The notes: generated by a model not told the origin, from the sequence alone. A DNA stretch of 64,000 nt from Alphaproteobacteria bacterium (GCA_963665325.3 OZ224045.1:1120001-1184000), one strand, 5' to 3'. Shown: positions 1 to 18,267, numbered from the stretch's first letter. Program-made: numbers and translations.

Positions 1-3000
1 CCGGTCCATGAGTGCCGCGCCGTCGACGATCCGGGGCTGCCGGCTCCTCAGCCACTCGACAAGCGAGCGCGTCTCCCGCAGGCGCCAGAACGACGGAATG
101 TCCTCATTGCCCATCTGCACCGGAATGCCCAGCGCCTCGCAACAGGCGCGGACCGGGACGAGATAGTCCCACTCGCGGGCGATGACGGCAGAGCGGGACC
201 AGTCCCAATCGGGCGTGAGTGCAGCCAGGCGCTGCAGTTCCGCCACCGCCGTCCGCGCCTGCGAGACCGCGTCGGCGCCCGCCGGCAGGATCTGCACCCG
301 TCCCCGCCCGACCGGGTCCAGCTGCTCCCATCCGCCACCCCGCGGCGCCCTGGCGCGCGCCCGGTCGATCTGGACGGGATGCTCTGCCTTCAACCGCTCG
401 CGCGCCGGCGCGATCGCTGCATTGGCCGCCGCCACGATATGGGCACTGGAACGGTAGTTTTCGGTCAGATAGGCCGGCCTCGGGCCGTAATCGGCCTCGA
501 ACCGCCTGATGAACTCCACCGAGGCGCCGTTGAAGGCATAGATGTTCTGGTCGTCATCGCCGACCGCGAACAGGGTGAGTTTGCCTTCCTCGTCTTCGCG
601 CGTGCGACCGGCAAGCGCCGATATCAGGTCGTACTGCTCCGCCGCTATGTCCTGGTATTCGTCGACCAGGATCCAGCGAAAGCCCGCGAGCAGCCGCTCC
701 CGGCGTTCGTCGGCGTCCTCCGACGGCAGGTCGGCGCCCTGCAGCACCTCGACGGCGCGCCGGACCACGTCCCTGAACATCTCCTCGTCGGGGCTCTCCG
801 CCCGGCCGGTGAAGCTCGCGCCGGCAAGGCGCATCGCGAGCGCATGGCAGGTCAGCACCGTCACGCGCCGCGCATCGTTGCCGACCAGCTCGCCCAGGCG
901 CCGCCGGATGTCGACCGCCGCATGGCGGTTATAGGCAAGCGCCAGGATGCCGCGCGGGTCTTCGCGCCTCACCCGGACGAGATACGCGATGCGGTGCACC
1001 AGCACGCGCGTCTTGCCGGATCCCGGACCTGCGAGCACCAGCACATTGGTCCGCTCCCGGTCGTCGGCCACGATCCGCTGCTGCACGGGGTTGTTCAGGC
1101 TCTCGACGATAGCCCGCCAGGAGGCGGGCGTGGTCTGCCGCCCGGTCTCCCGGTCGCGGCCGGGCAGCCAGCGCTTCAGGAAGTCCGCCTCGTTCAGGGC
1201 GAAGTAGTCCCCCGCCAGGCGAAGCGCGTCCCTCATCCTGACGAGGCCGCACTCGGCGAATGCCGCCATGACGTGGACCTGCCGCACCTGCCCGTCATAG
1301 TGGAGCGAGAGCGGCTCGAAATCGGCGTTGGTGAAGCCCCGGCGCTCTCCCCGGTCCAGGCGAAGGGTCATGGCCGGGCGGAACACCGTCAGTCCCTTGT
1401 TGAGGCGGATGACCTCCTGTTCGTGGAGCCACAGCAGGGCGCGTTCCAGCAGCTTCACGGGGAACCTGACCTTGCCGCTCAGGACCATGTCGTCCGCAAG
1501 CGCCCGGTTCAGCTTGCCGAGCGTGGTCTCCGCGAGCAGATCGGTGCCGCGGCTTCTTGCCGGCAGGCAGGAGAGCAGATGCTCCAGCAGGCAGGCTGCC
1601 GCCTCGCGCCGAAGACGGGCAGTCTCTTCCAGACTGTCCCATTCCCGCCTGAGCGTTATGCGCGCGGTCTCCGCATCCTGCTTGCGGACCGAGAGGCTCC
1701 CGGCCGCCCCGTCCTCGCCGCGGCCGTCATAAGCGATGCCGCGGACGATCCGCCAGAGGCGCTCGGGCAGCGGGTCGGCCAGTCCCCCGTCCCGCAGTGC
1801 CTGCGAAGCAATCCTGAGATGAAGCGAGGAGGTCTCGCCCCTTTCGAGTTCGGGCGCCGCCTCGCGCATATGCTCGATCAGCGCCGTCTCCAGCGCTCCG
1901 GCCGCCTCCAACCGTCGTCCGGACGCATGCTCGACCCCAACATGTACGAACGCGGTCAGGACCGTGTCGTTGCTGGCGATACCGAACCTTTCGAGGTCGA
2001 ACAAGGCCGCGCGCACGGCTTCGGAACCGAGGCCCGACACACCCATCAACTCATCGGTGGTCACCCCCTCGTCGGCGCCGGCCTCGATCAGGGCGCCTGC
2101 AATCCGCAGGAGCTGCTCGCGATAGGCCTCGTCCGTCGGCGCCCTTTGGAGCCGCGCCCGGGCTTCCTCGATCGAAGCCACGATCAACGAGGACGGGAAC
2201 ACGCTGACGCGGTTCTCCTCCCGGGTCAGCAGTTCGGCTTCCTCCAGCCATGAAATCGCGGTGCGCACACGCGTGTCGTCCGTGACCGCGTCCCTTTCGA
2301 ATGCCCGGTCCTCGTCCTCGCCCAGGATCTCGCCGACGGTCGCAATAACCTCCCCGTCGAGGCGCTTCCTGCGGTCGAGCCTCCTCAGCGCTCTCAGAAC
2401 GCCGCCGATCTCCCGCCGCGTAAGCCGCGAGCGCGCCGACATGCCGAACTGGCGTTCCACGTCGTCGGCGGCAAAGAGCAGAACGCAGGACGCCGGTTGC
2501 CGGTCGCGGCCGGCGCGGCCGGCCTCCTGCAGGTAGTTCTCCAATGAGCCCGGGATGTCGGCATGGACCACCAGGCGCACATCCGGCTTGTCGATTCCCA
2601 TGCCGAAGGCGTTGGTCGCCGCAATGACATCGAGTTCGCCCTCGATGAAACGCCGCTGTACGTCCTTGCGGATCTCCGGCGACAGTCCCGCATGGAAGAA
2701 GTCGGCCTTCGCTTCCTTCGACTGCAGGAACTCCGCGATCTCCTCGCACTGGCGCCGCGTCGCGCAATAGACGATGGCGCCGCCTTCCCCCGGAGACAGG
2801 TTGGCCTCCAGCGCCTGGTGGAGATGGGCGAACTTCTCGCCGCCCGTTGTCGGCAGGACCTGGAAATCGAGATTCGGCCTCTCGGCGCCGCCGTCGAATA
2901 CCCGGAGATCGATGCCGAGCCTCTCCCGGAAATGGCGCGCAATGTCGTCGGTCACATCCGGCTTGGCGGTCGCCGTCAGGCACAGGACCGGCGGTATCGG

Positions 3001-4356
3001 TTCCTTGCCTGCCTTCTCGCGGATGAACCGGGCCACGTAACGGTAGTCCGGCCTGAAATCATGGCCCCAGCGCGACAGGCAATGCGCCTCGTCCAGGACC
3101 CAGGCGCCGATCTCGCGCTGGTCGAGCGCTCGGCGCAGCGAGACGGAGCGCAGCTGCTCCGGCGAGGTGATGAGGATGCCCGCGTCTCCCAGGCGCACAC
3201 GGTCGAGCGCATCGGCCCGCTCCGGCATCGACAGCATCCCGTTGACCGTCACGCAGGACCCGATGCCTTGCCGTTCCAGCCCCGCGACCTGGTCCGCCAT
3301 CAGCGCCACCAGCGGTGAAATCACCACGGTCAGCGCTCCCGTCCTGTCATAGCGCGATAGCGCCGGGACCTGGTAGCAGATCGACTTGCCGGTCCCCGTC
3401 GGCAGGATGCAGAACACATGCTCGCCCGCCATTGCCGCCTCGACGATGGCCTGCTGCATCGGCTGCCCGTCCTCGCAGACGGGCTCCGGCCGGAACGCCT
3501 CGAAGCCGAACCAGCGCTTGAGTTCCTTCCGGGCGTCATGGCGTTCCCGGCACCACCGGCAGGCCGGATCGGTGCAGGCACTGTCCCGGAGCAGGCGGAC
3601 GATCCGTTCCGCTTCCGGGAACTGGTGCCTCACCCAGGGCGGCATGACGGAGTTGCCGCCCGCCACCGATATCCAGGCCAGCGCATAGGCGAGCGGCCAG
3701 CCCCGCAGGTCCCGGTCGGCCAGGACATCGCGCGCGCCCGTGCGGCATGCGTGTCCCCGCAACCGCGCAATGACCGCATCCCGCGCTTCGGCCCCGGACG
3801 GCCGCGGCGCGCCGCGAAGGTCCGCGAACAGGCTGTCCAGTGCGCGGTCCGCTCCTTGCGGCTCCGGCGTGCAGAGCCGGTGCCAGGCGGCCAGAAGGTT
3901 GGGCGGCGCCTGTTTCAGCGCGTGCAACTGGTCGGCAAACACGTCGAGCGCAAGGCGTGCGTCGAGCTCGGGGTCGTTCAGCTGCCCGCGCCTCAGTCCC
4001 CCGTCCCGGTAGTGCTTCACCAGGCGGTGATAGGGATTGCGCGGAAAGGCGAGCGGGCTGAGGCGCAGCGTGTCCACCGCCGGCAATGCGAGCAGGCGCA
4101 GGCCGGGATTCGTCGCCGCGAGATGCGGCAGGTCGAAGGCTATCAGGTTGTGGCCGAGGACGAACGCCGCACCTTCGGCAAGCCGGTCCAGCTTCGCCAG
4201 CGCCGCCCCAAGCCCGCCGCCCGCATGCACCAGGCGTTCGCCGGTATCGGCGCGCACCGCGCCGAACGCCCGGATGCGCCCGTCCTTCCTGCCGACCTCA
4301 AGGTCCAGCGACAGGCAGCGATAGGGGACGCTCCCGGTTGGCGCGCGTTCCGTCAT
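1..4356 (-). CDS. Large DEDD-type exonuclease-like + RecQ helicase + UvrD/Rep helicase fusion protein (3' end outside window, >=1452 aa)
   Basis: Motif regions hand-translated from ATG at 4356; the ORF track omits this ORF, consistent with no stop inside the window. N-terminal CLSLDLE...GHNLIAFD...DTL...NDPELD; RecQ motifs ILPTGTGKS (~3390), VLDEAHCLSRWGHDFRPDY (~3070), ATNAFGMGIDK, QEAGRAGRD; second Walker A LAGPGSGKT (~1020), ILVDEYQD (~660), VGDDDQNIY (~550) of SF1/UvrD type. Confidence 0.9.
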   Translation of the reverse strand, partial: MTERAPTGSVPYRCLSLDLEVGRKDGRIRAFGAVRADTGERLVHAGGGLGAALAKLDRLAEGAAFVLGHNLIAFDLPHLAATNPGLRLLALPAVDTLRLSPLAFPRNPYHRLVKHYRDGGLRRGQLNDPELDARLALDVFADQLHALKQAPPNLLAAWHRLCTPEPQGADRALDSLFADLRGAPRPSGAEARDAVIARLRGHACRTGARDVLADRDLRGWPLAYALAWISVAGGNSVMPPWVRHQFPEAERIVRLLRDSACTDPACRWCRERHDARKELKRWFGFEAFRPEPVCEDGQPMQQAIVEAAMAGEHVFCILPTGTGKSICYQVPALSRYDRTGALTVVISPLVALMADQVAGLERQGIGSCVTVNGMLSMPERADALDRVRLGDAGILITSPEQLRSVSLRRALDQREIGAWVLDEAHCLSRWGHDFRPDYRYVARFIREKAGKEPIPPVLCLTATAKPDVTDDIARHFRERLGIDLRVFDGGAERPNLDFQVLPTTGGEKFAHLHQALEANLSPGEGGAIVYCATRRQCEEIAEFLQSKEAKADFFHAGLSPEIRKDVQRRFIEGELDVIAATNAFGMGIDKPDVRLVVHADIPGSLENYLQEAGRAGRDRQPASCVLLFAADDVERQFGMSARSRLTRREIGGVLRALRRLDRRKRLDGEVIATVGEILGEDEDRAFERDAVTDDTRVRTAISWLEEAELLTREENRVSVFPSSLIVASIEEARARLQRAPTDEAYREQLLRIAGALIEAGADEGVTTDELMGVSGLGSEAVRAALFDLERFGIASNDTVLTAFVHVGVEHASGRRLEAAGALETALIEHMREAAPELERGETSSLHLRIASQALRDGGLADPLPERLWRIVRGIAYDGRGEDGAAGSLSVRKQDAETARITLRREWDSLEETARLRREAAACLLEHLLSCLPARSRGTDLLAETTLGKLNRALADDMVLSGKVRFPVKLLERALLWLHEQEVIRLNKGLTVFRPAMTLRLDRGERRGFTNADFEPLSLHYDGQVRQVHVMAAFAECGLVRMRDALRLAGDYFALNEADFLKRWLPGRDRETGRQTTPASWRAIVESLNNPVQQRIVADDRERTNVLVLAGPGSGKTRVLVHRIAYLVRVRREDPRGILALAYNRHAAVDIRRRLGELVGNDARRVTVLTCHALAMRLAGASFTGRAESPDEEMFRDVVRRAVEVLQGADLPSEDADERRERLLAGFRWILVDEYQDIAAEQYDLISALAGRTREDEEGKLTLFAVGDDDQNIYAFNGASVEFIRRFEADYGPRPAYLTENYRSSAHIVAAANAAIAPARERLKAEHPVQIDRARARAPRGGGWEQLDPVGRGRVQILPAGADAVSQARTAVAELQRLAALTPDWDWSRSAVIAREWDYLVPVRACCEALGIPVQMGNEDIPSFWRLRETRSLVEWLRSRQPRIVDGAALMDR

Positions 4357-4577
4357 CCTGGAGAACGGGGCGGATGCGCCATCTTCGCCGCAACTGGCGC
4401 CAGTCCACTGGCAATCGAAGAGCAAATCAGCATTGTCGAAAGCCGTTCTAGACCGGATTCCGCCCTTCCGCACTCAGCGCTTCCACGCGGGACGACAGGC
4501 ATATCGGCACCGGCGCCCAGAAGAAGGCCGAAGTCGGACCGGTCCGCCGACAGCGGCCTCCCGGCGCCTGCCCGGCG

Positions 4578-5390
4578 CTACTCGCAGACGACGCCGTCGC
4601 CGTCCCCGTCGCGCACGAAGCGGTAGGCGGGATGGCCCCGCGGCACCGGCGCGATGCCGTGGCGGCGGGCTTCCTTGCAGGTAATCCGCCCGTTGCCATT
4701 GTCGTCCCATAGCCGGAGCGCATCGACCCTTTCTCCCGAAGAGGAAGGGGGCGGCGGCTTCGGTATCCGAAGCGCTCCCGTGGACCGGCCGGCGGCAAAC
4801 ACCATGTCCGTGGACGTGCAGGCTGACAGCACCTGCTCCAGGGCCGCAGCCTCCCGGCGGTCCACCGTGAGGCCGTATTTGCGTTTCACGGAGACGATCC
4901 GATGGGCGAACCAGCAGCGGTTCATGGACGGCAGCCACTCGGCGGCATCGTGATGGCACTTGCCGGAGGCCCCGCAGCGGTTCACGGCGGGCGCGGCAAG
5001 GGTGAGGTTGAGGAGGTCGCGGGCGAAGCGCCGGCGGACCGTCCGGTCGGCGGCGCAGAGGCCGCTGTCATGCGCCTCCGAAACCGCGACGATGTGCTCG
5101 ATGTCGGTCTGCCGCCTGCTCGCGAAGTACCGCCCGGTATAGGGCCCGTAGATCCGCCCGCCCATCGACGCGACGATATCCGCCTCCACCGACTGCGGAT
5201 AAGGATAGTCGCCGCGCTCATAGGGCGTGCAGCGATATTCGCTCGCGACGGCGAGGCCGCGCCAGGTGTTGTCCTCTGCCCCCGCCGCGGTGTCTTCACA
5301 GACGATGAGGATCGCAAGGCCGGCAATGCAGGCCGAAGCACGGGCAATGGCTCTTGTCCGTCGCCTGTGCTTGCCGACAATTCCGTTCAT
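4578..5390 (-). CDS. Secreted HNH-type (DUF1524-like) nuclease with C-terminal Excalibur Ca-binding domain
   Basis: GGAGG/GAGG RBS before ATG 5390; signal-peptide-like N-terminus; DIEHIVAVSEAHDSG...FARDLLNLTLA..VN motif; C-terminal DGDGDGVVCE. Confidence 0.8.
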   Translation of the reverse strand: MNGIVGKHRRRTRAIARASACIAGLAILIVCEDTAAGAEDNTWRGLAVASEYRCTPYERGDYPYPQSVEADIVASMGGRIYGPYTGRYFASRRQTDIEHIVAVSEAHDSGLCAADRTVRRRFARDLLNLTLAAPAVNRCGASGKCHHDAAEWLPSMNRCWFAHRIVSVKRKYGLTVDRREAAALEQVLSACTSTDMVFAAGRSTGALRIPKPPPPSSSGERVDALRLWDDNGNGRITCKEARRHGIAPVPRGHPAYRFVRDGDGDGVVCE

Positions 5391-6210
5391 TGTCCTCGTC
5401 CTCCGTGGCCGGTCGACATGCCCGCGCCGACCGCACAGTTGCTTCGCTCCGCCGCGAAGAAAGCCACGGGCCAACCGTTGTCCTGCCATTGCTTCCCGGC
5501 ACTACCGACACCATGCGAAGCGGGAACGCGAAGGGCAAGACGAGCAAGTGACCGGGAGGGACGCCGGGCGCGGTCTTCTATTCGGGTTCGGGCGGGCTGT
5601 TCCGGGGCTCGTATTGACGGCGGAAGACGGTGGCGGCCGCGGACCCGGAACCCGCCACCGAGGCCGTCTCCTCGACCCTGATCGTGGCATCGACAACCCT
5701 GGCGCGAAGCTCCGCGAGGTCCTTCAGGGCGACCGTTGGCGGGAATCGTGTCACCTGCTCGTTCTTCATGTAGTGGGCTTCCCCGTTGGCTGCATCGACA
5801 AGTTTGTCGGCCTGTAGAGCCCCAATCGTACCTCTCCACTGGGGTCAATCGTACACGCATCTCCGCCGCGTCTTCTCCCTGCTCCGCCGAGACGAGAGCG
5901 CCGGCCGTAAGCGGGTCGGCCGTCACGTGTGCGGGGAGAGGCCGTCCCAGCCTCGTTCGGCAGTTGACCGCCCCGAACTCCAAAGCTGTCCACGATGCTC
6001 CATGCTGACCAACCCATGCCTTCCGGTTCAGGCCCCAGGGCGTCAAGCCCGACGAAGTCTCGCTCAGCGAGAACATCGGTCCCATCGCCAATTAAGCTGG
6101 CCGCCCGGCTCCGCTACCCCCTCTAGCGGACTAGCTTGGCCGAGAAGCCATCAATGCACTAGCATCAAGACTGGATCAGCCGGGACTTGCCCAATCAGCC
6201 AAGTAGCACG

Positions 6211-7269
6211 ATGCCGGAAGAGAACATCATAGAAATCAACAAATACACGGCTCGCGTGGGTCCGTGGCGCAGGATCGACGCGGTTGTATTCGTGCATGGC
6301 ATTGCTGGGCACTTCCGCGACACTTGGGGGGGGTTCCCCGAGCTCCTGCAATCAGACCCCGATCTGCCTGACCTGGACATCCTGCTTTGGGGCTATCGAA
6401 CAAGCTATCTGCCTCAAGACGTCCACGGCACAGGAACCCTCGCTCGCAATCTCGTCTCCGAATTGCGTGTTCGGCTCGAAAACGCCGCCGACGTGAGCCT
6501 CGTCCTCGTGGCCCATAGCATGGGGGGACTGATCGTGTTCGAAGGCCTGGTCGAAGAAATGAGCCAAGGCCGTGCAGAGCAGAAGCCAACGAGTTTGCTT
6601 CGCCTCATCTCGCTGTTCGCCGTGCCAACCAAAGGCAGTTCGGCGGCGGACACGGCGGCCACTGCAATTGTACGGTTTGGCCTGCCCGAAGGGTTCCTAA
6701 ACGAGCAGATAAGGTCTCTTCAAGGCAATGCCTGCGATTCGTTGATAGCTCATGTAGCACGACAAATCTATGATCCACCGGACAATGGACCACACTCCCG
6801 ACGGATTCCTATCCGCATGGTAATGGCAAGCCGCGACACCGCTGTTGACGTCGGTGACAGCGACATGACAAACGCACCTTTTCAAGAACCTCCTGCCCTA
6901 GAACTCGATTACGACCATCATGACGTGAAGCTGCCCAATTCGCATGAAGATAATCGTTACCTAGCCTTGGCACACGACATTCAGACGATGGTTGCCGAGC
7001 GCTTCGCCGAGCTTTGCCAACGCTGTCTGCATGGCGTCGGAGGCGATCGTACACTCGCGGAAACCGATCTGGAAATACGATATGGGGCAATGCTCCGCAA
7101 ACGTTTGGCTGACTCCATAGGCCGACCGGAAGTCGAGCAACGCGTCTACGGGCGCTATCTTCAGCTCGTGCTGCACGATTGCGCATCGCTCGGACGTCCA
7201 CCGTTCGATTCTGCGAACCGCGCCATTATCGTGCTGAAACGCAGTGGAAATCTGGACAGTGACAGTTGA
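6211..7269 (+). CDS. Alpha/beta hydrolase (lipase/PGAP1/DUF676-like) with helical C-terminal extension
   Basis: VVFVHGIAG oxyanion motif, LVAHSMGG nucleophile elbow, candidate Asp (RDTAV) and His (DHHDVK). Confidence 0.85.
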   Translation: MPEENIIEINKYTARVGPWRRIDAVVFVHGIAGHFRDTWGGFPELLQSDPDLPDLDILLWGYRTSYLPQDVHGTGTLARNLVSELRVRLENAADVSLVLVAHSMGGLIVFEGLVEEMSQGRAEQKPTSLLRLISLFAVPTKGSSAADTAATAIVRFGLPEGFLNEQIRSLQGNACDSLIAHVARQIYDPPDNGPHSRRIPIRMVMASRDTAVDVGDSDMTNAPFQEPPALELDYDHHDVKLPNSHEDNRYLALAHDIQTMVAERFAELCQRCLHGVGGDRTLAETDLEIRYGAMLRKRLADSIGRPEVEQRVYGRYLQLVLHDCASLGRPPFDSANRAIIVLKRSGNLDSDS

Positions 7270-7825
7270 CCACACTCAAGAGGTCCGCCGCAGACCGGAT
7301 AGCGAAACGGCGTGGCAAGACTGGGTCCGATTTGTCTATCCGCGTGTGTACTACACGGTCTATCGGGTTACCCGAGGCGATGTTCAGCAGACCGAGGATC
7401 TGACTCAATCTGCGATCGAAAGATTCCTTCGTTACCGAGCAATAGAGAGGGTAAAAGTAGACCAAGATTCAGTCGCTTATCTCGTGCGCATTGCGCGGCG
7501 ACTGAACCTCGATTTTGTTCGTGAACAAAAAATTCGGAATGAACTGCACGACGACATCGAGCGCACGACGGAAGACGTAGCAGTGCACACTGAAGACAAT
7601 GCCTCCACCGCCTTGGATTTCGAACGACTGATGAAGGGACTGGCAACACCTGACCGCCAACTGATCCGATGGCTGTGCGAAGGCCGGTCGGTGGTCGAAA
7701 TAGCGACGTATCTGGAGATTTCCTACACTGCGGCAGCGGCACGGATTCATCGAGCCAAGGCTCGGCTGAAAAAATTTGCCGAGGATGTGCAAAGAATCGA
7801 CCCCAGCGCCGGTTTAGATAAGTGA
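7244..7825 (+). CDS. ECF-type RNA polymerase sigma factor
   Basis: Region 2 (AWQDWVRFVYPRVYYTVYRV..GD...EDLTQ) and region 4 HTH (EGRSVVEIATYLEISYTAAAARIHRAKARL); 193 aa; start codon uncertain. Confidence 0.85.
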   Translation: MEIWTVTVDHTQEVRRRPDSETAWQDWVRFVYPRVYYTVYRVTRGDVQQTEDLTQSAIERFLRYRAIERVKVDQDSVAYLVRIARRLNLDFVREQKIRNELHDDIERTTEDVAVHTEDNASTALDFERLMKGLATPDRQLIRWLCEGRSVVEIATYLEISYTAAAARIHRAKARLKKFAEDVQRIDPSAGLDK

Positions 7826-9180
7826 TAGGGGAACAAGCTTCCATACCAGGGAGATGCACAATTAGCAGGCAACACGGCAAGACGGGCATAGGCCGAGAGT
7901 CCGAAGATATTGCCGCCTTCGACATGGATGACCTTCTGGGGCAGATGTCCGTTCTCGCGGACCAAGCAGGCGATTGGCGAGAGCACATCCCCTACGCCGC
8001 TGCGGTGGGATTCCTCGAGGACGAAGGGTACCAACAGCGGCACGGCGCCCATGTCAATAACTGTCAATATTGTCAACAGCTTATCGATGCGTTGCGTCCC
8101 AGCGAAGACATGGTGGCCAAGCTGCTTTCCAGAGTGCCAGAATTCTCACTTGGCTCCGAGGTCCAGATTGACGTTGCCGACGCCGTAACGGAAGCGCGCC
8201 GGAACCTCGACTCGTTACGAGATATCGTTCTTGCTCAATCGCATAGCGATCATCCCGGCGCACTCAGGGCTTGGGCAAGCGCGCAACAATACCTTGTACA
8301 CGCGAGCCAATCGTTTGGCAGTCCATATGGCGAAGCGCTAATGCCGTGGACAGCGACCGTAGCACTGTCGTTGGGCACACAGCCTCACGTGACTTCGGTA
8401 GAGAGAGGATGGGACCAGTTCGGGGAAGTCATAGAAGATGCAGTATCGCTTCTGCTTGCATCTGGTCTTCGAGTGGCAGTAGCAGGCGATCCGCAATCTG
8501 GAGGTATTTCTAAAAGGATTTGCAATCTAGCTCACCAGTTTGGACGTCGACGAGTCTCCACCCGACCAAAGAAATATCCTGTAAACATGAACGAATTGAC
8601 ATTCGGCATCACAGAATATTGTGCTTGGCCAGTACATATCAGTATGCCGTTGGTAGAAGTTGGTACATACGAGGCCAGTTTCGGCAAGTTTGGCATGATC
8701 CAATGGCTTACGCTTCACGGTGAATCACGTCCATATTCCGATTTCGAGAAAATGGCCCGCCATCAACCTGCTGCCGAAGAATGGAAGGAAGGGCTAACTG
8801 CACTGAGAAACACCATGATGCATGATAGCCTCGGCCAAATTACAATCGGAGGCAGCACAAACGTCAGCTGCGATGAAATGCCGCCGTTAGCACAGGACGC
8901 ATTGGTTTCTCTACGTAGCCAACACCCGCTATATGTTCTCGGAGGTTTTGGTGGCTGTGCGCAGGAAGTGGCCGCCGCCTTGCATTTGACAGAAAAACAG
9001 CCAACAGATAATTCTAATCGGCGTGGATTTGACGAATTTAGCCGCTACACCGGTGCCAAACATCTTCACAACGGACTTGATGCTTTGGAAAATCAAACGT
9101 TGGCAGAGACGACAAGCGTGGAAGAAGCGGTGCAACTAGTTGGCTTGGGAATGAGACGTGTTATTTCCCAGTTGGAATAA
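7822..9180 (+). CDS. Zinc-binding anti-sigma (HxxxCxxC) domain fused to a SLOG-family (LD_cluster2-like) domain
   Basis: GTGA overlap with the sigma stop; H-x21-HVNNCQYC at 8050-8073; C-terminal half has AWPVH, EWKEGLTALR, ITIGG, PLYVLGGFGGCA, LHNGLDALENQTLA as in TIR-associated SLOG proteins. Confidence 0.75.
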   Translation: MIGEQASIPGRCTISRQHGKTGIGRESEDIAAFDMDDLLGQMSVLADQAGDWREHIPYAAAVGFLEDEGYQQRHGAHVNNCQYCQQLIDALRPSEDMVAKLLSRVPEFSLGSEVQIDVADAVTEARRNLDSLRDIVLAQSHSDHPGALRAWASAQQYLVHASQSFGSPYGEALMPWTATVALSLGTQPHVTSVERGWDQFGEVIEDAVSLLLASGLRVAVAGDPQSGGISKRICNLAHQFGRRRVSTRPKKYPVNMNELTFGITEYCAWPVHISMPLVEVGTYEASFGKFGMIQWLTLHGESRPYSDFEKMARHQPAAEEWKEGLTALRNTMMHDSLGQITIGGSTNVSCDEMPPLAQDALVSLRSQHPLYVLGGFGGCAQEVAAALHLTEKQPTDNSNRRGFDEFSRYTGAKHLHNGLDALENQTLAETTSVEEAVQLVGLGMRRVISQLE

Positions 9181-9599
9181 CGATCTTGAGCGCTTTGCCA
9201 CACTGATGGTCTACTAATGAGGTTTCAGCCGCAAAGTATAGCGTTCCGCTTCCACTTCAGAAGCGGTCGTGATAGAAAACGCTGACTCCTTTCTGAACAA
9301 TGTGCGACAGCCGTTGCAGCTTAGACTGGAGTAGATCTGATCCACGTTCAGCAATCAATGCAGTCCCTTGAGCGATGGTCAGCCCTGCAGTCCATCAACT
9401 TCCAGGTGTGGCTAGACTGTAAGCGGGGCGACCGGGGCACCTTCCAGAAGGGTTTCGGATTTGAGATTCACGTCTGCGATTTGGGCAGGTGTTAACGGCG
9501 GCGGAATAATGCTCCACAGGAAGCGCCCGGTTGGTCGGGTCGCGGCGGCGCAAAATTGCGCCAGTGATGCCCCCTTGTCCGTTTGGTCGGGGGCGGGGG

Positions 9600-11102
9600 A
9601 TGTATGGGGTGGAGCTTTACGCAGCGGTACGACTTGCGGTTGTCGAGGAGGGTCTGAGCCATCATGAGGCCGGTCGGCGGTTCGGGATCGACCGTCGCAC
9701 GGTGAAGAAGATGCTGAGCTATTCGGCGCCTCCGGGCTATCGGCGCCGGAAGCCGGTGCGTCGTCCGAAGCTGGACGGGTTCACCGGGATCGTCGATGCG
9801 ATCCTGGAGGCGGACCGGGCGCCGGACGTGCCGGTCAAGCAGCGGCACACGGCGCACCGGATTTTCGAACGGCTGCGTGACGAGCACGGGTTCACGGGTG
9901 GCTACACCATCGTGAAGGACTATGTGCGCTCGCGGCGGCAGTCGACGCGCGAGGCCTTCGTGCCGCTGCATCATCCGCCGGGCCATGCGCAGGTCGACTT
10001 CGGCGAGGCGGTGGTCGAGGTCGGGGGCCGGCGCGAGAAGGTGGCTGTCTTCTGCCTGATCCTGCCGCATAGCGACCTGTGGTTCGTGAAGGCCTATCCG
10101 AAGGAGACGACGGAGGCGTTCCTGGACGGCCATGTCAGCGCCTTCGCCTTCCTCGGCGGGGTTCCGCTTTCGGTGCTTTACGACAACACGACCCTGGCAG
10201 TGGCGCGGATCCTGGGCGACGGCACGCGTCAGCGCACGCGGGCGTTCACGCCTCTGCAGTCGCACTACCTGTTCCGCGACCGCTTCGGTCGTCCCGGCAA
10301 GGGCAACGACAAGGGCAAGGTGGAGGCGCTGGTGAAGACGGCGCGGCGCAAGTTCATGGTGCCGATCCCAAAGGTGCCTGATCTGGATGTTCTGAACGAG
10401 CGGCTTCTGGCGCGCTGCCTGGAGCGGCTCGACGCGCTGCAGCAGAGCGCGCAGGCGGCGGCGTTGCTCGCCGATCTCGACACCCTGCGCGATCTTCCGG
10501 GCGCGCCCTTCGAGGCGTGCGAGCATGTGCCGGGCCGCGTGTCCTCGACGGCGCTGGTGCGCTACCGGTCGGTGGACTACTCGGCCCCGGCGATGCACGC
10601 CCACAAGAAGGTGACGATCAAGGGCTATGTCGACCGGGTCGAGATCGCGCTCGGCGCCGGGATCGTCGCCCGCCACCGGCGTTCCTATGTCCGCGGCGAC
10701 GTCGTTTACGACCCGCTGCACTATCTCTCGCTGCTGGAGAAGAAGCCGGGGGCGCTGGACCAGGCGGCGCCGTTGCGGGGCTGGAAGCTCGATCCAGCCT
10801 TCGACGCGCTGCGCCGCCTGCTCGAGGCGCGCTTCGGGCCGCGCGGCAAGCGGGACTACATCCAGACCCTGCGCCTGCTGGAGGACTTTCCGGAGCGCCA
10901 GGTGACGGCCGCGGTGCGGGACGCGGTGGCGCGCCGGCTGGTCGGCTTCGATGCAGTCAAGCACCTGCTGCTGGCGCGCATCGAGAAGCGCCCGGCCCAT
11001 CTCGACCTGACGCGCTACCCGCACCTGCCGCAGCCCCTCGTCGCCGCCACCCGGGCCGGCGACTATGCCTCCCTGCTGGCCGGAGGGGGCAGTCGTGGCT
11101 GA
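9600..11102 (+). CDS. istA: IS21 transposase IstA
   Basis: N-terminal HTH; AQVDFG, LYDN, KGKVE DDE motifs. Confidence 0.95.
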   Translation: MYGVELYAAVRLAVVEEGLSHHEAGRRFGIDRRTVKKMLSYSAPPGYRRRKPVRRPKLDGFTGIVDAILEADRAPDVPVKQRHTAHRIFERLRDEHGFTGGYTIVKDYVRSRRQSTREAFVPLHHPPGHAQVDFGEAVVEVGGRREKVAVFCLILPHSDLWFVKAYPKETTEAFLDGHVSAFAFLGGVPLSVLYDNTTLAVARILGDGTRQRTRAFTPLQSHYLFRDRFGRPGKGNDKGKVEALVKTARRKFMVPIPKVPDLDVLNERLLARCLERLDALQQSAQAAALLADLDTLRDLPGAPFEACEHVPGRVSSTALVRYRSVDYSAPAMHAHKKVTIKGYVDRVEIALGAGIVARHRRSYVRGDVVYDPLHYLSLLEKKPGALDQAAPLRGWKLDPAFDALRRLLEARFGPRGKRDYIQTLRLLEDFPERQVTAAVRDAVARRLVGFDAVKHLLLARIEKRPAHLDLTRYPHLPQPLVAATRAGDYASLLAGGGSRG

Positions 11103-11859
11103 GGCGCCCCGCATCCTGCTCGAACACCACCTGAAGAAGCTCAAGCTGCCGACCGTCCTGCGGGAATACGAGAAGCTGGCCCGCCAGTGCGCGGCCGAGG
11201 GGCTGGATCATGTGCAGTTCCTCGCCCGGCTGGTGGAGATGGAGACGATCGACCGCGAGCGCCGCCTGGTCGAGCGCCGCATCCGGCAGGCCCGGTTCCC
11301 GGTCGTCAAGCAGCTCGAGAGCTTCGACTTCAAGGCCATCCCCAGCCTGAACAAGATGCTGGTGCTCGACCTCGCGCGCGGCGACTACATCGAGCGGCGC
11401 GAGAACGCGATCCTGCTCGGCCCGAGCGGTGTGGGGAAGACGCACATCGCTCTGGCCCTCGGCCTCGCCGCCTGCCAGAAGGGCCTCGCCGTGCGCTTCA
11501 CCACCGCCTCCCAGCTCGTCCACGAGATGATCGAGGCGCGCGACGAGAAGAGGCTGCTCCGCCTCCAGGACCAGCTCGCCAGGGCCAGCCTGCTGATCGT
11601 CGACGAACTCGGCTACGTGCCCCTCTCGCAGAGCGGAAGCGAGCTGCTGTTCGACGTCTTCAGCCGCCGCTACGAAAACGGCGCCACCATCGTCACCTCG
11701 AACCTGCCCTTCCAGGAATGGACCTCGGTCTTCGCCAGCGAACGCCTCACCGGCGCGCTGCTCGACCGCATCACCCACCATGTCCACATCCTGGAGATGA
11801 ACGGCGAAAGCTACAGGCTCAAGCAAAGCCGGTCGCGACGACGGCCCCCCTCCGAATAA
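11095..11859 (+). CDS. istB: IS21 helper ATPase IstB
   Basis: GPSGVGKT Walker A, LLIVDELGY Walker B, TSN, ALLDR, GESYR. Confidence 0.95.
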   Translation: MAEAPRILLEHHLKKLKLPTVLREYEKLARQCAAEGLDHVQFLARLVEMETIDRERRLVERRIRQARFPVVKQLESFDFKAIPSLNKMLVLDLARGDYIERRENAILLGPSGVGKTHIALALGLAACQKGLAVRFTTASQLVHEMIEARDEKRLLRLQDQLARASLLIVDELGYVPLSQSGSELLFDVFSRRYENGATIVTSNLPFQEWTSVFASERLTGALLDRITHHVHILEMNGESYRLKQSRSRRRPPSE

Positions 11860-12035
11860 ACCGCTTGCCCCCATAGCCCACAGGTCCCTCCCACGCGCGG
11901 GCCGACGCCAGCCACGTGGAGGGCGCGCCGCCCCGCGCGCGGGGCCCTCCCATGGACTATGGGGACAAGCTACCGCCGAGACCCTGGTGCAATTTTACGC
12001 CGCCCCGCCGGTACATTTTTGCTCCGCCGTTGACA

Positions 12036-12834
12036 GGATAAAGCGCGAGGCGGCATCGACGCTGCAGCAGGACGTCATCTCGACCGTGCGGCGCTGGACC
12101 CGGCTCGGCCAGTTGACCATGAGCGACTGCGAGTCGATGGCGATGCCCATCTGCGTCGGGAGACGGCGTGCGCCGGTCAGGAAGGCCCGCGTGACGGCGC
12201 CGTTCATCTCCCGGCAGCGACGATGGATGAAATCGAGGATCTTGTAGTAGTCCTTGCAGCTGTTGAGCCCCGCGCCTTTCACCGTGCGGCGCATGGGCGA
12301 CTTGTTGGCGATGCGCGAGAACACGTCGGCGGCGAGCGACTGGTTCCTGGCGTGGATCCTGGGCGCCTTGCGCGAGACGGTCACGCGGCGCAGGCAGGCC
12401 TTGCACTGGTAGATCGGGTTTCCGCGGTTCTTGTAATAGCCATACCTCGTATAGTGCTGACGATGCTCGCCGACGGAACGCCCCTCATTGGGACAACCCG
12501 GGGTCTTGCAGGCGAAGCGGTATTCCAGCGGGCGGGCATAGTCCGCAATGCGCTCGATCTCCTCGGCGATGGCAGCGTTCGAACGGATGGCGCCCTTGCC
12601 CTTGCAGGCCTTGCACTCGATGGCGGGCTCCTGGCCCTTGGCGGTCGAGGTCAGCTTGTAGCGGAGATCGCGGTCCCTGCTCGGCCCGGTCTTGCCGCGC
12701 TTCGTGCGGGCCGGCACGCCGAAATTGGCGCAGCCCGGTGTGCGGCAGTGATTGGTCTGTATCGGGAACATATCGCCGAGAATCCTGGCATTGGCGGTCT
12801 CGGGGACCCGGAGCGTGCGGGGTGTCAAAGCCAT
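12036..12834 (-). pseudogene. Cys-rich putative transposase / insertion-element protein, truncated by the IS21 right end
   Basis: GAGGAGG RBS; HCRTPGC, CKAC, CKTPGC, CKAC zinc motifs, HTH-like segment, then IAIDSQ...SVDAAS; the reading frame runs into the IS21 terminus at 12035. Confidence 0.6.
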
Positions 12835-13527: not shown

Positions 13528-14280
13528 ATGCCCCAAGACTTGCTGACCAGGTGGCAGGTCCAGCATTTACGGTTCTCTGTGTTCTTGACGAATCCAGCTC
13601 AGCCAAGTCCGATTGACTCGTGGGTGGATGTCGTAGGCCAGGATGCCGACAACACACACATCAAGGGCACGGGCGATCAGCGCGTCGTCACGCAACAAGG
13701 CCCATTCCGTGATACGATGATGCGTGCAGATGTCCGGAGGGACCGAGTCGACTGGTTTCTTCTGCCGTCTCCTCCGGCAACACCGGACTCTAGCCTCACC
13801 GCAGGGCCCTATGATGGCCTCACCGTCCCGTTCAGCACGTGTATGCGGACATGGCTTGATGTAGCCGGTATCGTCGCAAACAGGATGGCATTCGGAGCCC
13901 AGCTCAGCCTTACGCCGGGAGATCGATCTGCGGCCCTCGCGGTTCTCGCTGAATTGGTTACCACGGTGCAGATAGACGTTCAGAACACTTGGGACTTTGA
14001 GTACGCCGTAAATAGGCGGAGAACGTCTAACACCATCGCTGATCTAATGATTAATCGGGTGGCCAAATGGACTTTGATCAGGCAGATCCTTAATGAAGTC
14101 GACTTGTCGTTAAATGGTAATCCGCCACGGATAGTTACCTCAACCGTATATCTTCCAGTTCTTACGCTGGACGTAAATACAATTCCGGAACATTCCGGAC
14201 CGCTAGATCAGCTTGAGGAACTCTTGGAAGAGCTTGCACGTCTTGGAACGGAAATCGCGCTGGAGGGAGATGTGCCATGA
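13528..14280 (+). CDS. Hypothetical protein, TIGR04255-like
   Basis: GGAGG RBS; NRMAFG...INRV..W...LTLDVNT pattern; ATGA overlap with next gene. Confidence 0.6.
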   Translation: MPQDLLTRWQVQHLRFSVFLTNPAQPSPIDSWVDVVGQDADNTHIKGTGDQRVVTQQGPFRDTMMRADVRRDRVDWFLLPSPPATPDSSLTAGPYDGLTVPFSTCMRTWLDVAGIVANRMAFGAQLSLTPGDRSAALAVLAELVTTVQIDVQNTWDFEYAVNRRRTSNTIADLMINRVAKWTLIRQILNEVDLSLNGNPPRIVTSTVYLPVLTLDVNTIPEHSGPLDQLEELLEELARLGTEIALEGDVP

Positions 14281-14921
14281 CTTTGGAGGACATTAAGGGG
14301 TTTACGAATAATAACAACACCACTCTACCTCCCCCGCAGGGTGGAGAAACGACGGTGTTTGAGAAACACACATCCGCCATGGGTAACCGAAGGGTCCTTT
14401 TCCCTCTGTTACTGCTTGGTATTATGGATACGAGCGTTGCTGATGCACTACCTCGGGGAGACTTTTCCTACAACTCTACTTCGGAGACGGGTCAGGTTGT
14501 GCCGTACGTTGCACGTCCGGCTGGCGACACCAGTCTCGCCAGTGTCACGCAACCAGTCGATCCTGCAACAAATGACCGCGTGGCGTATATGAATCGGATT
14601 GATCAACTTCGTTCGTTTGCCGAAGAAGACGGGATAGAGTTCAGCACAGTATCTGAGCACGACTTTCTCGATTTCGCCTGCACTGAGCCACGGACTAAGC
14701 GGGCGAGTCTCGTCCTGTTGGATAACGGGAACCTTCGAGCGGTATGGAGGATGGGTGAGCAGGAATTAGGTGTGCAGTTCTATGGCGATGGTGCGGTCCA
14801 ATACCTGATCTCGCAGAAAGGTGACGACGGCAGGATCACGCATACTGCGCAAAGAGGTATCTTCGATGATTTCTTGGACGCAACCGAAGCTGTGGGTCTC
14901 GGTCACCTGCTCTACGAATGA
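14277..14921 (+). CDS. Hypothetical protein (disordered N-terminus, alpha/beta C-terminal domain), putative antitoxin
   Basis: GGAGGGAG RBS; ATGA overlaps at both ends; C-terminal RIDQL...LLDNGNLRAVWR...LGVQF. Confidence 0.6.
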   Translation: MTLEDIKGFTNNNNTTLPPPQGGETTVFEKHTSAMGNRRVLFPLLLLGIMDTSVADALPRGDFSYNSTSETGQVVPYVARPAGDTSLASVTQPVDPATNDRVAYMNRIDQLRSFAEEDGIEFSTVSEHDFLDFACTEPRTKRASLVLLDNGNLRAVWRMGEQELGVQFYGDGAVQYLISQKGDDGRITHTAQRGIFDDFLDATEAVGLGHLLYE

Positions 14922-15367
14922 AGAAACGCAAAATTCTAGCGGATCAACGAGTTGTTCGGTATGTCAGGCCGAGACTGGTGCATTCCACGGGACGAATCGA
15001 CCCAGAAGCATTCGTGCTTCGGGTCTTTGAGGACAAGATTTGCGAAATTGGACTCTCTATCAACTGGCTTGACGTTTTCTCAGGCGATACCCAGAACCAA
15101 CTTCAGCACGTTACGACCCATATCCATTTTAAAGTAACAAGCAACGGTCGGTTTGCCGAGTTTACGGTGGAGGATTTGAAGATGCTCCTCGCGGAGGAGG
15201 GTGTAGAGGCTGCCGTCTGCCACGACCCCTTGGATGCGGATGAAAAATACCTCTGCGACCCGTCGCATGCAGAGCTTTACGGGTTGCCATCGCCGCTGAC
15301 CGACCGAGCTACGGAAGTCGGCGCTGTGCTTGCCCGTGCAGCGACACTTCATTCTCCTCCGAATTAG
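14918..15367 (+). CDS. Small ART/RES-like protein, putative toxin
   Basis: 149 aa with VVRY...AF.LR...GLSINW...SHAEL spacing (R-S-H) reminiscent of ADP-ribosyltransferase-fold toxins. Confidence 0.55.
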   Translation: MKKRKILADQRVVRYVRPRLVHSTGRIDPEAFVLRVFEDKICEIGLSINWLDVFSGDTQNQLQHVTTHIHFKVTSNGRFAEFTVEDLKMLLAEEGVEAAVCHDPLDADEKYLCDPSHAELYGLPSPLTDRATEVGAVLARAATLHSPPN

Positions 15368-15765: not shown

Positions 15766-16644
15766 ATGACGAGTGAACTCACCGGCGGGACGATCAAGAT
15801 TGTTGGCTGGAACATCGGCAAAAGGGCTAACCCTTGGCGCGAACTTGTAGCGATGGCGGAACGTGGAGAAGCGGATGTTGCGCTGTTGCAGGAGGCTGCG
15901 AGCCCCCCGGGCGATTTGAGGTATCCGATCCACTACGAGGACGATGTCCATTGGGACCGATCCTATTTCGATCGCTGGCCTCTTGTCGTGCGATTGTCGG
16001 ACCGGGTTGAGGTCGAATGGTTTCTGCAGGTGCCACCGTGGAGCGAACTGGGCGAGCAGGAAATCGGCGCGAGCGGTATCGGGACCATGGCATGCGCCAG
16101 AATAGTCCCCGTCGACAGGCCGAAAGAAGCATTCGTCGCTGTCTCGATGTATGCACGGTGGATGACGGCTCATCCGTCATTCGGAAAAAGGCCGAGGATT
16201 TTTGCCGATCCCTCAGCCCACCGTATCCTTTCCGACCTGTCGGCCTTCATCGACCGCACCAAAGGCCCGTCTCGACATCGCATTCTGGCAGCCGGCGACC
16301 TGAACATGTTCTATGGAGCGACAGGTTCCTCCCTCTCGAAGCCTGGGCGCGAGCGGACGGTTTGGGACCGGTTTGCGGCGCTGGGACTCGAATTCATAGG
16401 TCCGCAAGTCCCGAACGGCCGTCCGTCGAAAACGCCTCAGCCCGACGTGCCGGCTGATACGAAGAATGTCCCGACATACTATACCGGGGCGCAGAAAGTA
16501 GCCTCGAAAGCCAATCGCCAGCTCGATTACGCTTTCGCCTCGCGCGGGTTCCACGAAACAGTGACCGTACGGGCTCTCAACGGCATCGACGAGTGGGGAC
16601 CGAGCGATCATTGCCGGCTACTGATCGAAATCAGACGCCACTGA
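15766..16644 (+). CDS. Endonuclease/exonuclease/phosphatase (EEP) family protein
   Basis: GWNI, LLQE, AGDLN, LDY, SDH motifs; AAGGA RBS. Confidence 0.9.
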   Translation: MTSELTGGTIKIVGWNIGKRANPWRELVAMAERGEADVALLQEAASPPGDLRYPIHYEDDVHWDRSYFDRWPLVVRLSDRVEVEWFLQVPPWSELGEQEIGASGIGTMACARIVPVDRPKEAFVAVSMYARWMTAHPSFGKRPRIFADPSAHRILSDLSAFIDRTKGPSRHRILAAGDLNMFYGATGSSLSKPGRERTVWDRFAALGLEFIGPQVPNGRPSKTPQPDVPADTKNVPTYYTGAQKVASKANRQLDYAFASRGFHETVTVRALNGIDEWGPSDHCRLLIEIRRH

Positions 16645-16758: not shown

Positions 16759-17487
16759 ATGTCTGACGTACGAACCGTGCTTCGGATCGGCACCTGGAAC
16801 ATCGATTGGGCGAAACCGGGCACGGAGCGGGGCCTATGTGTTGCCAAGCGCCTAGCCGCGCCCGGATGCGATTTGCTGTGCGTGACCGAGGGCTACGCCG
16901 GAATTCTGCCGGACGGAGGTCATCTGATCGATGCTGGCCCCGACTGGGGCTACGCCGCTGTGGAGGGGCGCCGCAAGGTACTGCTGTGGAGCAAGCGACC
17001 TTGGTCCGCCGTCGATCCGGTCGGCTCTGACGCGCTCCCCGGTGGGCGTTTCGTGGCGGGCACGACTGAGACCGATCTGGGGCCTCTGTCGGTCGTCGGC
17101 GTCTGCATTCCCTGGCGTGACGCGCATGTCCGCACCGGCCGCAAGGACCGGGCGGGATGGCAGGACCACGAGGCCTGGCTCTCCGGGTTCGCAACCCTGC
17201 CTTGGCGGGAAGCCCGGAATAGGACCGTTGTTCTCGGCGATTTCAATCAGCGGATTCCGCGATGGAGGCAGCCCAAGCGCGTTTACCAGGCAATGCGGGA
17301 CGCTTTCTCGGGGTTCTGCTTCGCCACAGCCGGCGAACTTGCTGGAACGGCGGAAAGGTCGATCGATCATATCGCCCATACCCCGGACTTGACGCTCGTG
17401 GGAGACATTCGAGTCTGGCCCAGGCGAGGCGCCCGGTTCAATCTCACGGACCACAATGTCGGGGTCTGGGGCGACTTCGCTCTTTAG
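16759..17487 (+). CDS. Second, divergent EEP family protein
   Basis: GGAGGAGG RBS; TWNI, CVTE, LGDFN, IDH, TDH motifs. Confidence 0.9.
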   Translation: MSDVRTVLRIGTWNIDWAKPGTERGLCVAKRLAAPGCDLLCVTEGYAGILPDGGHLIDAGPDWGYAAVEGRRKVLLWSKRPWSAVDPVGSDALPGGRFVAGTTETDLGPLSVVGVCIPWRDAHVRTGRKDRAGWQDHEAWLSGFATLPWREARNRTVVLGDFNQRIPRWRQPKRVYQAMRDAFSGFCFATAGELAGTAERSIDHIAHTPDLTLVGDIRVWPRRGARFNLTDHNVGVWGDFAL

Positions 17488-17891: not shown

Positions 17892-18267
17892 CTAGCGTCT
17901 GATTTCGATCAGCAGCCGGCAATGATCGCTCGGTCCCCACTCGTCGATGCCGTTGAGAGCCCGTACGGTCATCGCTTCGTGGAACCCGCGCGAGGCGAAG
18001 GCGTAATCGAGTTGGCGATTGGCGTTCGAGGCCACTTTCTGCAGCCCGGTATAATGTGTCGGGACATTCTTCGTATCATCCGGCGCGCATCGGGCTGAGG
18101 CGTTCTCGAAGAACGGCCGTTCGGGGCTTGCGGACCCATGAATTCGAATCCCAGCGCCGCAAACCGGTCCCAAACCGTCCGCTCGCGTTTGGGCGCTGCG
18201 ATGGTGGAACGTGTCGCTCCATAGAACATGTTCAGGTCGCCGGCTGCGAGAATGCGATGTCGGGACG
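17892..18267 (-). pseudogene. Inverted, 5'-truncated and frameshifted copy of the 15766-16644 EEP gene
   Basis: Near-identical RHRILAAGDLNMFYG...GPSDHCRLLIEIRR; 2-bp GC expansion at ~18085; similarity stops at 18267. Confidence 0.9.

Follow-up and report, generated by a model that had tools for sequence, protein, structure and literature searches.

A rare three-gene cassette pairs an ECF-type sigma factor with a putative anti-sigma/SLOG fusion protein and an alpha/beta-hydrolase

Bacterial immune signaling by nucleotides is known to end in cell death or arrest through the enzymes that it activates, and the one route described so far, to our knowledge, by which such a signal reaches transcription, that of CalpL/T/S, requires a separate protease. 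Can a sigma factor be wired to a small-molecule signal by a sensor that forms part of the anti-sigma factor itself? This question is raised by a cassette of three genes in a 64,000-nucleotide stretch of DNA from an alphaproteobacterium (GCA_963665325.3, OZ224045.1:1120001-1184000; the whole stretch is referred to here as the window), which encodes an alpha/beta-hydrolase, a sigma factor of the extracytoplasmic function (ECF) type, and a protein in which a helical, zinc-type anti-sigma-like domain with an HHCC motif is fused to a SLOG cluster2 domain. The reading that we favor, at a probability of about 0.55, is that the sigma factor is held by the soluble HHCC anti-sigma domain, that the SLOG domain senses a nucleotide-derived ligand, and that the hydrolase is the conserved output; the cassette would then be a self-contained, mobile ECF sigma/anti-sigma switch, for which we infer sequestration, ligand, release, regulon, substrate, and role.

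The cassette and its fusion protein

The cassette occupies positions 6201-9411 of the window on the plus strand (~3.2 kb), which is the sole DNA that the window has in common with locus L001, from a Paracoccaceae metagenome-assembled genome, at 88-90% identity by blastn. Its three co-directional open reading frames (ORFs; 6187/6211-7269, 7244/7259-7825, and 7822/7924-9180) have a GC content of 0.50-0.57 against 0.67-0.70 in the flanks and about 0.69 in the backbone, confirming what a prior reading of this DNA from its sequence alone (the sequence-only reading) had described as three co-directional low-GC genes. The hydrolase gene (6211-7269) encodes 352 amino acids (aa) from ATG 6211, with an alternative start at TTG 6187, and overlaps the sigma gene (7259-7825), whose product has 188 aa if GTG 7259 is the start, as it is in P0040, or 193 aa if the start is GTG 7244; the overlap is conserved, the genes of the window sharing 11 or 26 nt and those of L014, a metagenome contig, 29 nt. 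The third gene (7924-9180) encodes 418 aa from ATG 7924 and 452 aa from GTG 7822, and the latter codon overlaps the sigma stop codon. The two genes had been described as coupled through a GTGA; the overlap is indeed present, but a true start at this point is doubtful, in that conservation among 25 aligned family members begins at M35 (ATG 7924), the gene-caller product has 418 aa (P0001), the 34 extra residues are poorly conserved with residues 1-33 below 50 in predicted local distance difference test (pLDDT) in an AlphaFold2 model, and the third gene of L014 begins ~90 nt past the sigma stop. A non-coding tail (9181-9411, plus strand) that is conserved with L001 completes the cassette; it had no Rfam match, its RNA fold z-score of -1.07 was not significant, and it contained short ORFs only.

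In the numbering of the 452-aa form, which is used throughout, the fusion protein consists of the N-terminal anti-sigma-like domain (residues 35-103; 7924-8130), a helical linker (residues 104-177; 8131-8352) with modeled helices at 118-131, 133-139, and 147-164, and the SLOG cluster2 domain (residues 178-452; 8353-9180 with the stop codon), all encoded on the plus strand. The HHCC motif, H55-x21-H77-x3-C81-x2-C84, extends over 7984-8073 (H55 at 7984-7986, H77 at 8050-8052, C81 at 8062-8064, and C84 at 8071-8073), and the C-terminal part contains CAWPVH, GLTALR, IGG, PLYVLGGFGGC, and NGLDALENQTLA; every string that had been quoted for this protein occurs in it. It had also been thought to have no transmembrane segment, and this was borne out: the highest Kyte-Doolittle value over 19 aa is 1.59, inside the Rossmann-like core and unlike a membrane helix, and the AlphaFold2 model, built on a 25-sequence alignment, is globular (mean pLDDT 76).

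Among 5.8 billion clustered proteins the fusion had 39 matches, including 28 cluster representatives of the fusion family (P0002-P0029) besides that of the window (P0001), which share 35-81% identity with it and mostly cover more than 85% of the query (54-74% in P0025, P0027, and P0029); the remaining matches are SLOG-only proteins of ~270-290 aa. When the window protein was aligned full-length with 24 of these 28 representatives (leaving out P0011, P0025, P0027, and P0029), H77, C81, and C84 were invariant and H55 was present in at least 90%, a signature LA[DE][EQ]AGDWRxHLPY preceded the HHCC motif, and many SLOG columns were invariant. Relative to L001, the ratio of nonsynonymous to synonymous substitution rates (dN/dS) is lowest for sigma (0.20), followed by the SLOG domain (0.26), the hydrolase (0.28-0.30), and the N-terminal domain (0.35), and it reaches 0.87 in the linker, which is the least constrained segment. 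Judged by these ratios, the fusion is under purifying selection, and, with 28 relatives and domain values of 0.26-0.35, it is not the singleton with pseudogene-like dN/dS that had been named as the case against it.

The N-terminal and SLOG domains

The HHCC domain could be a different kind of small zinc module, one that acts as an adaptor or binds DNA or protein, with sigma controlled in some other way; ligand spacing, fold ranking, language-model neighbors, paralogues, and gene order all argue against this, and we regard it as improbable. All four HHCC residues are invariant in an 8-sequence alignment of the domain, and in a 42-sequence alignment H55 is invariant and H77, C81, and C84 each reach at least 90%. 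The spacing H-x21-H-x3-C-x2-C is that of the experimentally proven zinc center of DdvA (C6/H28/C32/C35), and RslA is described as being of the HHCC type (PMC11506125); the DdvA/DdvS pair controls a defense island. A model of the domain alone (pLDDT 85.9) had a single Foldseek match, RslA bound to SigL (E 7.8), and a fold ranking placed anti-sigma domains at ranks 1-3 of 48,161, with RslA, RseA, and RsiW as top matches. Among its neighbors in a protein language model, to be taken as a lead only, 25 of 30 named clusters carry zf-HC2 (scores ~0.91). The fusion gene, moreover, stands directly after the ECF sigma gene in all three loci with DNA (the window, L001, and L014).

The paralogues came from a profile search of 1.84 billion proteins, in which the domain was found in 110 cluster representatives, 81 of them at E ≤ 1e-10, mostly in three length classes: ~50-130 aa, ~210-375 aa, and the 408-459-aa SLOG fusions. 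In the mid-size class the domain is followed by a hydrophobic 19-residue stretch (positions 108-152, in 15 of 20 aligned proteins) and by a conserved C-terminal domain that has no Pfam match (consensus ...FxAARIYLA...LAYxRIGEGL...). To judge from its hydrophobicity profile, this layout is the classic membrane anti-sigma arrangement. Members of about 285-375 aa comprise P0187 and the proteins of alignment A5 (P0121, P0125, P0131, P0197, and others).

With class I zinc-binding anti-sigma (ZAS) proteins such as RslA, RsiW, ChrR, RsrA, and DdvA, the window protein thus has in common the pattern H/C-x21-H-x3-C-x2-C, a small helical N-terminal domain, a gene placed after that of an ECF sigma factor, and paralogues with a membrane helix after the domain. 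It differs from them in the LAxEAGDWRxHLPY signature ahead of the motif, in its failure to match zf-HC2 (discussed below), and in its C-terminal partner, a cytoplasmic SLOG domain where they have a cupin or a sensor in the membrane or periplasm; its binding of zinc and sigma, too, is predicted here. The comparisons support the view that the N-terminal domain behaves like a class I zinc anti-sigma domain. It represents a distinct anti-sigma-like domain (LAxEAGDWRxHLPY...HxxxCxxC) that is rare, escapes the Pfam models now in use, and comes in three forms, alone, membrane-anchored, and SLOG-fused, of which at least the last two travel with a conserved hydrolase.

The standalone form, in which the protein consists of the LAxEAGDWRxHLPY...HxxxCxxC domain alone (L017, L018, L019, L021, L022, L023, and L024), was found adjoining genes for small tyrosine recombinases, a transposase, a RiboL-PSP HEPN protein, a beta-lactamase-family protein, or a pentameric ligand-gated ion channel.

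The C-terminal domain had been predicted to be SLOG cluster2, and both profile and structural comparison bear this out. It matches PF18163 (LD_cluster2) over residues 208-414 with 99.8 bits against a cut-off of 25.3 (E 2.5e-28), and the same match was obtained in a genome-wide scan. SLOG families are said to have been defined by Burroughs et al. in 2015 (NAR). Foldseek found no match to the whole model at E ≤ 0.001 and listed SLOG-fold proteins at a probability of ~1; because it revealed SLOG folds by probability only, we used VIA-align. Structural comparison identified a Rossmann-like SLOG fold, and the closest folds to the C-terminal domain were those of ThsA immune sensors, at 12-15% sequence identity.

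Outside the fused family, SLOG cluster2 keeps company with TIR proteins. A TIR_2 gene whose product has ~400 aa lies directly upstream of, and overlaps, the SLOG cluster2 gene in L002, L005, and L016, and in L020 the two domains are fused in one 692-aa protein; L003 and L006 have the same layout of an overlapping ORF ahead of SLOG, as seen from the ORFs alone. All five matches in a plasmid collection are SLOG-only, three with TIR annotated under the match, one with a TIR gene beyond an IS3 element, and one with an overlapping upstream gene of 407 aa. Because the short relatives are preceded by or fused to TIR proteins, SLOG cluster2 can be described as TIR-partnered, in agreement with the sequence-only reading, and this linkage is in keeping with a ligand that is a nucleotide or comes from NAD. 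When 3 fused and 13 TIR-linked or TIR-fused sequences were aligned, AWPVH, GG, GGFGGC, NGL..EN..LA, and one arginine proved invariant. The fusion therefore shares PF18163 and these columns with the TIR + SLOG cluster2 modules, from which it differs in several respects: their SLOG proteins of ~270-290 aa have no anti-sigma domain and follow a TIR_2 protein, whereas the fused subfamily has sigma and hydrolase partners and residues of its own at three motifs (see below).

The likeness to Thoeris, in which ThsA (SIR2-SLOG, or with Macro/TM in place of SIR2) acts with ThsB (TIR), is similarly partial. Neither SIR2 nor any other effector domain is fused to the window's SLOG domain, PADLOC yielded no match to ThsA or ThsB, no TIR is encoded by the cassette or the genome, and the output would be transcription through sigma.

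Two further arrangements of SLOG cluster2 were noted. In L002, a gene for a MazG_C-domain protein (1e-76; 6064-7266, minus strand) follows the TIR + SLOG pair closely on its downstream side, in convergent orientation, and the layout is the same in L003 and L006 (8855-10057, minus strand); in these three related sphingomonad loci it may be a third component, or its position may reflect no more than synteny. In L004 (6199-8312), a 118-aa C-terminal fragment of SLOG cluster2, possibly a remnant or else a different architecture, comes after a gene with HTH_3 and Peptidase_M78 (ImmA/IrrE-like) domains and an ORF of 178 aa that Pfam does not match.

Distribution, partners, and proposed mechanism

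The order hydrolase, sigma, fusion recurs in L001, with 78-94% protein identity, and in L014, whose three proteins are 52%, 54%, and 44% identical to those of the window, so that the neighborhood search proposed for this locus had a positive outcome. For the metagenomic clusters, we took an equal size of the "longest contig" listed per cluster as a proxy for co-location, which does not prove adjacency, and many of these contigs are too short for all three genes; by this proxy, 10 of the 28 representatives occur with a sigma homologue and 11 with a hydrolase homologue, 17 having either and 4 having both. The DNA shared by the window and L001 ends 231 nt past the third stop codon, and the flanks of the window, L001, and L014 are unlike one another. 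A profile of the N-terminal domain had no match in a sample of 400 other genomes from the same class, among them one from the same genus; the plasmid collection held no fused form and no hydrolase homologue, and none of 173 pattern matches to the domain in viral contigs was confirmed. Within the window's own genome, hydrolase and SLOG are each single-copy. Because shared DNA is limited to the cassette, the flanks differ, none of the 400 genomes has it, and its hydrolase and SLOG are single-copy, the cassette is, by these comparisons, a rare, horizontally moving unit of ~3.2 kb; no terminal direct or inverted repeats were found to bound 6201 and 9411.

This distribution also bears on whether the cassette might be an ordinary stress or metabolic ECF circuit, in which the SLOG domain senses housekeeping nucleotides (NAD, ADP-ribose, nucleoside monophosphates) or is a LOG-like nucleotide-processing enzyme, the zinc center may sense redox in the manner of RsrA and ChrR, and the hydrolase may remodel lipids or esters. 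A patchy occurrence, a foreign GC content, and a position between dissimilar flanks amid insertion sequence (IS) elements all speak against such a circuit, as do the resemblance to ThsA and the TIR linkage of SLOG cluster2 elsewhere, and we consider it unlikely.

The second gene product contains regions 2 and 4 only in its ~190 aa (Sigma70_r2, PF04542, 1.4e-7; Sigma70_r4_2, PF08281, 1.7e-6) and belongs to the ECF superfamily by NCBIfam TIGR02937 (it scores 57.8 bits, where the cut-off is 42.9); by domain content it qualifies as an ECF (group IV) sigma factor. The hydrolase matches Abhydrolase_6 (1e-5) and DUF676 (1.1e-4), both above cut-offs, and has an H29-G30 oxyanion motif, a nucleophile elbow H102-S103-M-G-G (serine codon 6517-6519), D209, and H236; the HG, H-S-x-G-G, Asp209, and His236 do not vary among 31 aligned sequences, which makes it a Ser-Asp-His enzyme of the serine esterase/lipase type with its catalytic residues intact. 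A helical C-terminal extension of ~110 aa is conserved and has no Pfam match, the N-terminus does not look like a signal peptide by eye, and two distant relatives (P0111 and P0113) carry TPR-S + TIR_2 or TPR domains.

Homologues of this hydrolase (42-45% identity) share a contig-size fingerprint with 4 of the 16 mid-size clusters that were looked up (47481, 6559, 187625, and 11401). Since the hydrolase also accompanies anti-sigma variants with no SLOG domain, the core module would be hydrolase, sigma, and anti-sigma, and SLOG appears to be one option among two or more sensor modules. That the hydrolase tracks the anti-sigma domain and not the sensor, on this proxy, would also suit a role as signal transducer, that is, as a serine peptidase or esterase that cuts or modifies the anti-sigma protein, probably in its linker, once the sensor is triggered. 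Its triad is intact, it has a weak match to an S33 aminopeptidase-type fold (Hydrolase_4, E 0.027), the linker is poorly constrained, and there is a precedent in the type III CRISPR CalpL-CalpT-CalpS system, in which a SAVED-Lon protease cleaves the anti-sigma factor CalpT and frees CalpS (10.1101/2024.05.08.593097). However, its best affinities are to esterase and lipase families, not peptidases (DUF676, PGAP1-like, and, among solved structures with weak sequence similarity, the phospholipase PlaB at E 0.0013 and the esterase YbfF), and a CalpL-like role seems doubtful. The two modules are alike in having three proteins and, for the cassette by proposal, in coupling a nucleotide messenger to the release of an ECF-type sigma factor; they differ in that the Calp sensor, SAVED, sits on a separate protease while the presumed sensor of the cassette is fused to the anti-sigma factor itself, and in that the third protein of the cassette is an alpha/beta-hydrolase and not a Lon protease, with no CRISPR context.

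In the mechanism that we propose, the N-terminal helical domain of ~70 residues would keep the co-encoded ECF sigma factor inactive, and the SLOG cluster2 domain would serve as a cytoplasmic sensor. Its ligand would be a small molecule derived from a nucleotide, most probably one of the NAD- or ADP-ribose-derived kind made by the TIR enzymes that normally accompany SLOG cluster2. Binding of the ligand would shift the conformation or oligomeric state of the fusion and free sigma, which would transcribe a regulon that probably includes its own operon, and sigma activity would lead to more of the lipase/esterase-like hydrolase, the conserved output of the module. A role in anti-phage defense is plausible. 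A bolder version, which we put forward as tentative, makes the fusion a one-polypeptide receptor through which an immune-type nucleotide messenger, either TIR-made and resembling cyclic ADP-ribose or phage-derived, would release sigma and induce a membrane-attacking lipase; because the host has no TIR, the cassette may sense signals from other mobile elements or from the invader itself. If true, this would be a free-standing transcriptional arm of Thoeris-like signaling.

Several observations weigh against the proposed switch. With respect to the anti-sigma domain, Pfam zf-HC2 (PF13490) was matched neither by the whole protein at E ≤ 0.1 nor by the domain alone at E ≤ 10, and the N-terminal part matched no other Pfam family; since the profile is unmatched, the domain cannot be filed under zf-HC2. 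Of the pair zf-HC2 and LD_cluster2 that the sequence-only reading had expected here, only the latter was therefore recovered, and its interpretation of HxxxCxxC as a ZAS signature draws on motif, fold ranking, neighbors, anchored paralogues, and ECF linkage and lacks the Pfam match. Sequence searches of solved structures with N-terminal and whole-family profiles gave no relevant anti-sigma match, and copies of the domain that stand alone (78-83 aa), on six short contigs of ~1.0-4.1 kb, have no sigma gene in view there. Complex prediction of sigma with fusion residues 35-170 and zinc (three runs and three controls) gave a median score of 0.32 (0.31, 0.32, and 0.68), the best control reaching 0.00. 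Of 80 solved complexes, 58 reach the mark applied to this score, as do 2 of 110 mismatched pairs, and scores of 0.60 or less include just 7 of the 80 solved complexes, plus both mismatches that passed. At least 13% of contacts agreed between runs and partner pLDDT was at least 49; because sigma/anti-sigma complexes have already been solved, the pass may reflect likeness only. The predicted interaction of sigma with the ZAS domain thus rises above its controls at a low score, and the models lend weak support to sigma binding.

With respect to the ligand, the window's genome encodes no TIR_2 or TIR domain by genome scan, nor is one present in the three cassette loci, so that nothing in this genome is known to supply a TIR-type ligand. 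The fused subfamily departs from the TIR-linked sequences at three motifs (SxSES to SLDT, YGGD to [HV]AGD, and AEE to AQD), the window reading VAGD for YGGD and MPPLAQD for MPG[IV]AEE where the subfamily reads MPSLAQD; the alignment thereby confirms the altered YGG and MPGI.EE positions that had been recognized from the sequence, and, given three altered motifs, the ligand may differ from that of TIR-linked SLOG domains. With respect to regulation, no conserved promoter was found upstream of the hydrolase, where the DNA of the window, L001, and L014 cannot be aligned and homology with L001 begins merely 10 nt ahead of the first ATG (6211). The generic ECF-like motif GGAAC-N15-18-CGT was not enriched (10 found against 8.99 expected), and sigma-70 promoter and terminator scans remained at chance level. 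Finally, the L001 copy is decaying, with a DDE transposase (L001 5413-7076) splitting its hydrolase gene and a nonsense mutation (CGA to TGA, about 7846-7848) in codon 142 of its sigma gene, and PADLOC models matched none of the three cassette proteins, apart from a match of the sigma region-4 helix-turn-helix to CARF-HTH models.

The fusion is real and rare, and it is probably an undescribed variant of the pairing of an ECF sigma factor with a class I anti-sigma factor, one with a dedicated hydrolase and with a sensor that is cytoplasmic and new to such switches. The sequence-only reading knew of no described ZAS-SLOG anti-sigma factor, and neither a full-text literature search nor the main texts of two ECF and anti-sigma classification papers turned up a SLOG-fused anti-sigma factor or mentioned PF18163. 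The ASDI classification of anti-sigma domains is based on Pfam 31.0, a release that we take to be older than PF18163. If the proposed switch is real, its anti-sigma-SLOG fusion would be the simplest possible way for a small-molecule signal to act on a sigma factor, and SLOG cluster2, an uncharacterized TIR-partnered family, would gain a readable output, in the form of a transcriptional reporter, for ligand discovery.

Genomic surroundings

The cassette had been placed in a defense island, and this is borne out only in part: the region is variable and rich in IS elements, and it contains genes for helicases and nucleases but no recognized defense system. A helicase of ~1746 aa is encoded on the minus strand at window positions 1-4473 and for ~770 nt more upstream (L033 15233-20000), with DEAD/Helicase_C at ~338-657 and a UvrD-type part from ~1129; in PADLOC it matches DpdF (8e-115), and its C-terminal part is GajB-like. 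A Dpd cluster upstream of this helicase was considered and rejected, the genes there being housekeeping ones (RidA, SDR, cold-shock, EEP, and ABC transporter). Adjoining the helicase is a gene for a 303-aa protein (4578-5489, minus strand) that combines GmrSD_C, an HNH nuclease domain of the DUF1524 type, with an Excalibur calcium-binding domain at its C-terminus. The genome's single match to SMODS (CD-NTase-like) is a 461-aa frame ~530 kb away (G000:C1:1655889-1656260; L034), with no evident link to the cassette.

On the other side, ~120 nt past the end of the cassette, lies an IS21-family element (9531-11859, plus strand) with istA (rve/Mu-transposase C) and istB (9.2e-77), and an IS3 transposase is also found downstream. 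Just after the IS21 element, a 279-aa cysteine-rich protein with several CxxC pairs is encoded on the minus strand (11995-12834), followed by a second low-GC block (0.51-0.54) of three overlapping co-directional ORFs of 250, 214, and 149 aa (13528-15367, plus strand); these ORFs have no Pfam or PADLOC match, and the cysteine-rich protein has no significant one. Farther downstream are two adjacent genes of the EEP (Exo_endo_phos) Pfam family (15766-16644 and 16759-17487, plus strand), and around the second of these a near-identical 24-nt sequence, GGAACCCGCGCGAGGCGAA[A/G]GCGT, is present in inverted orientation, at 16529-16552 on the minus strand and at 17981-18004 on the plus strand.

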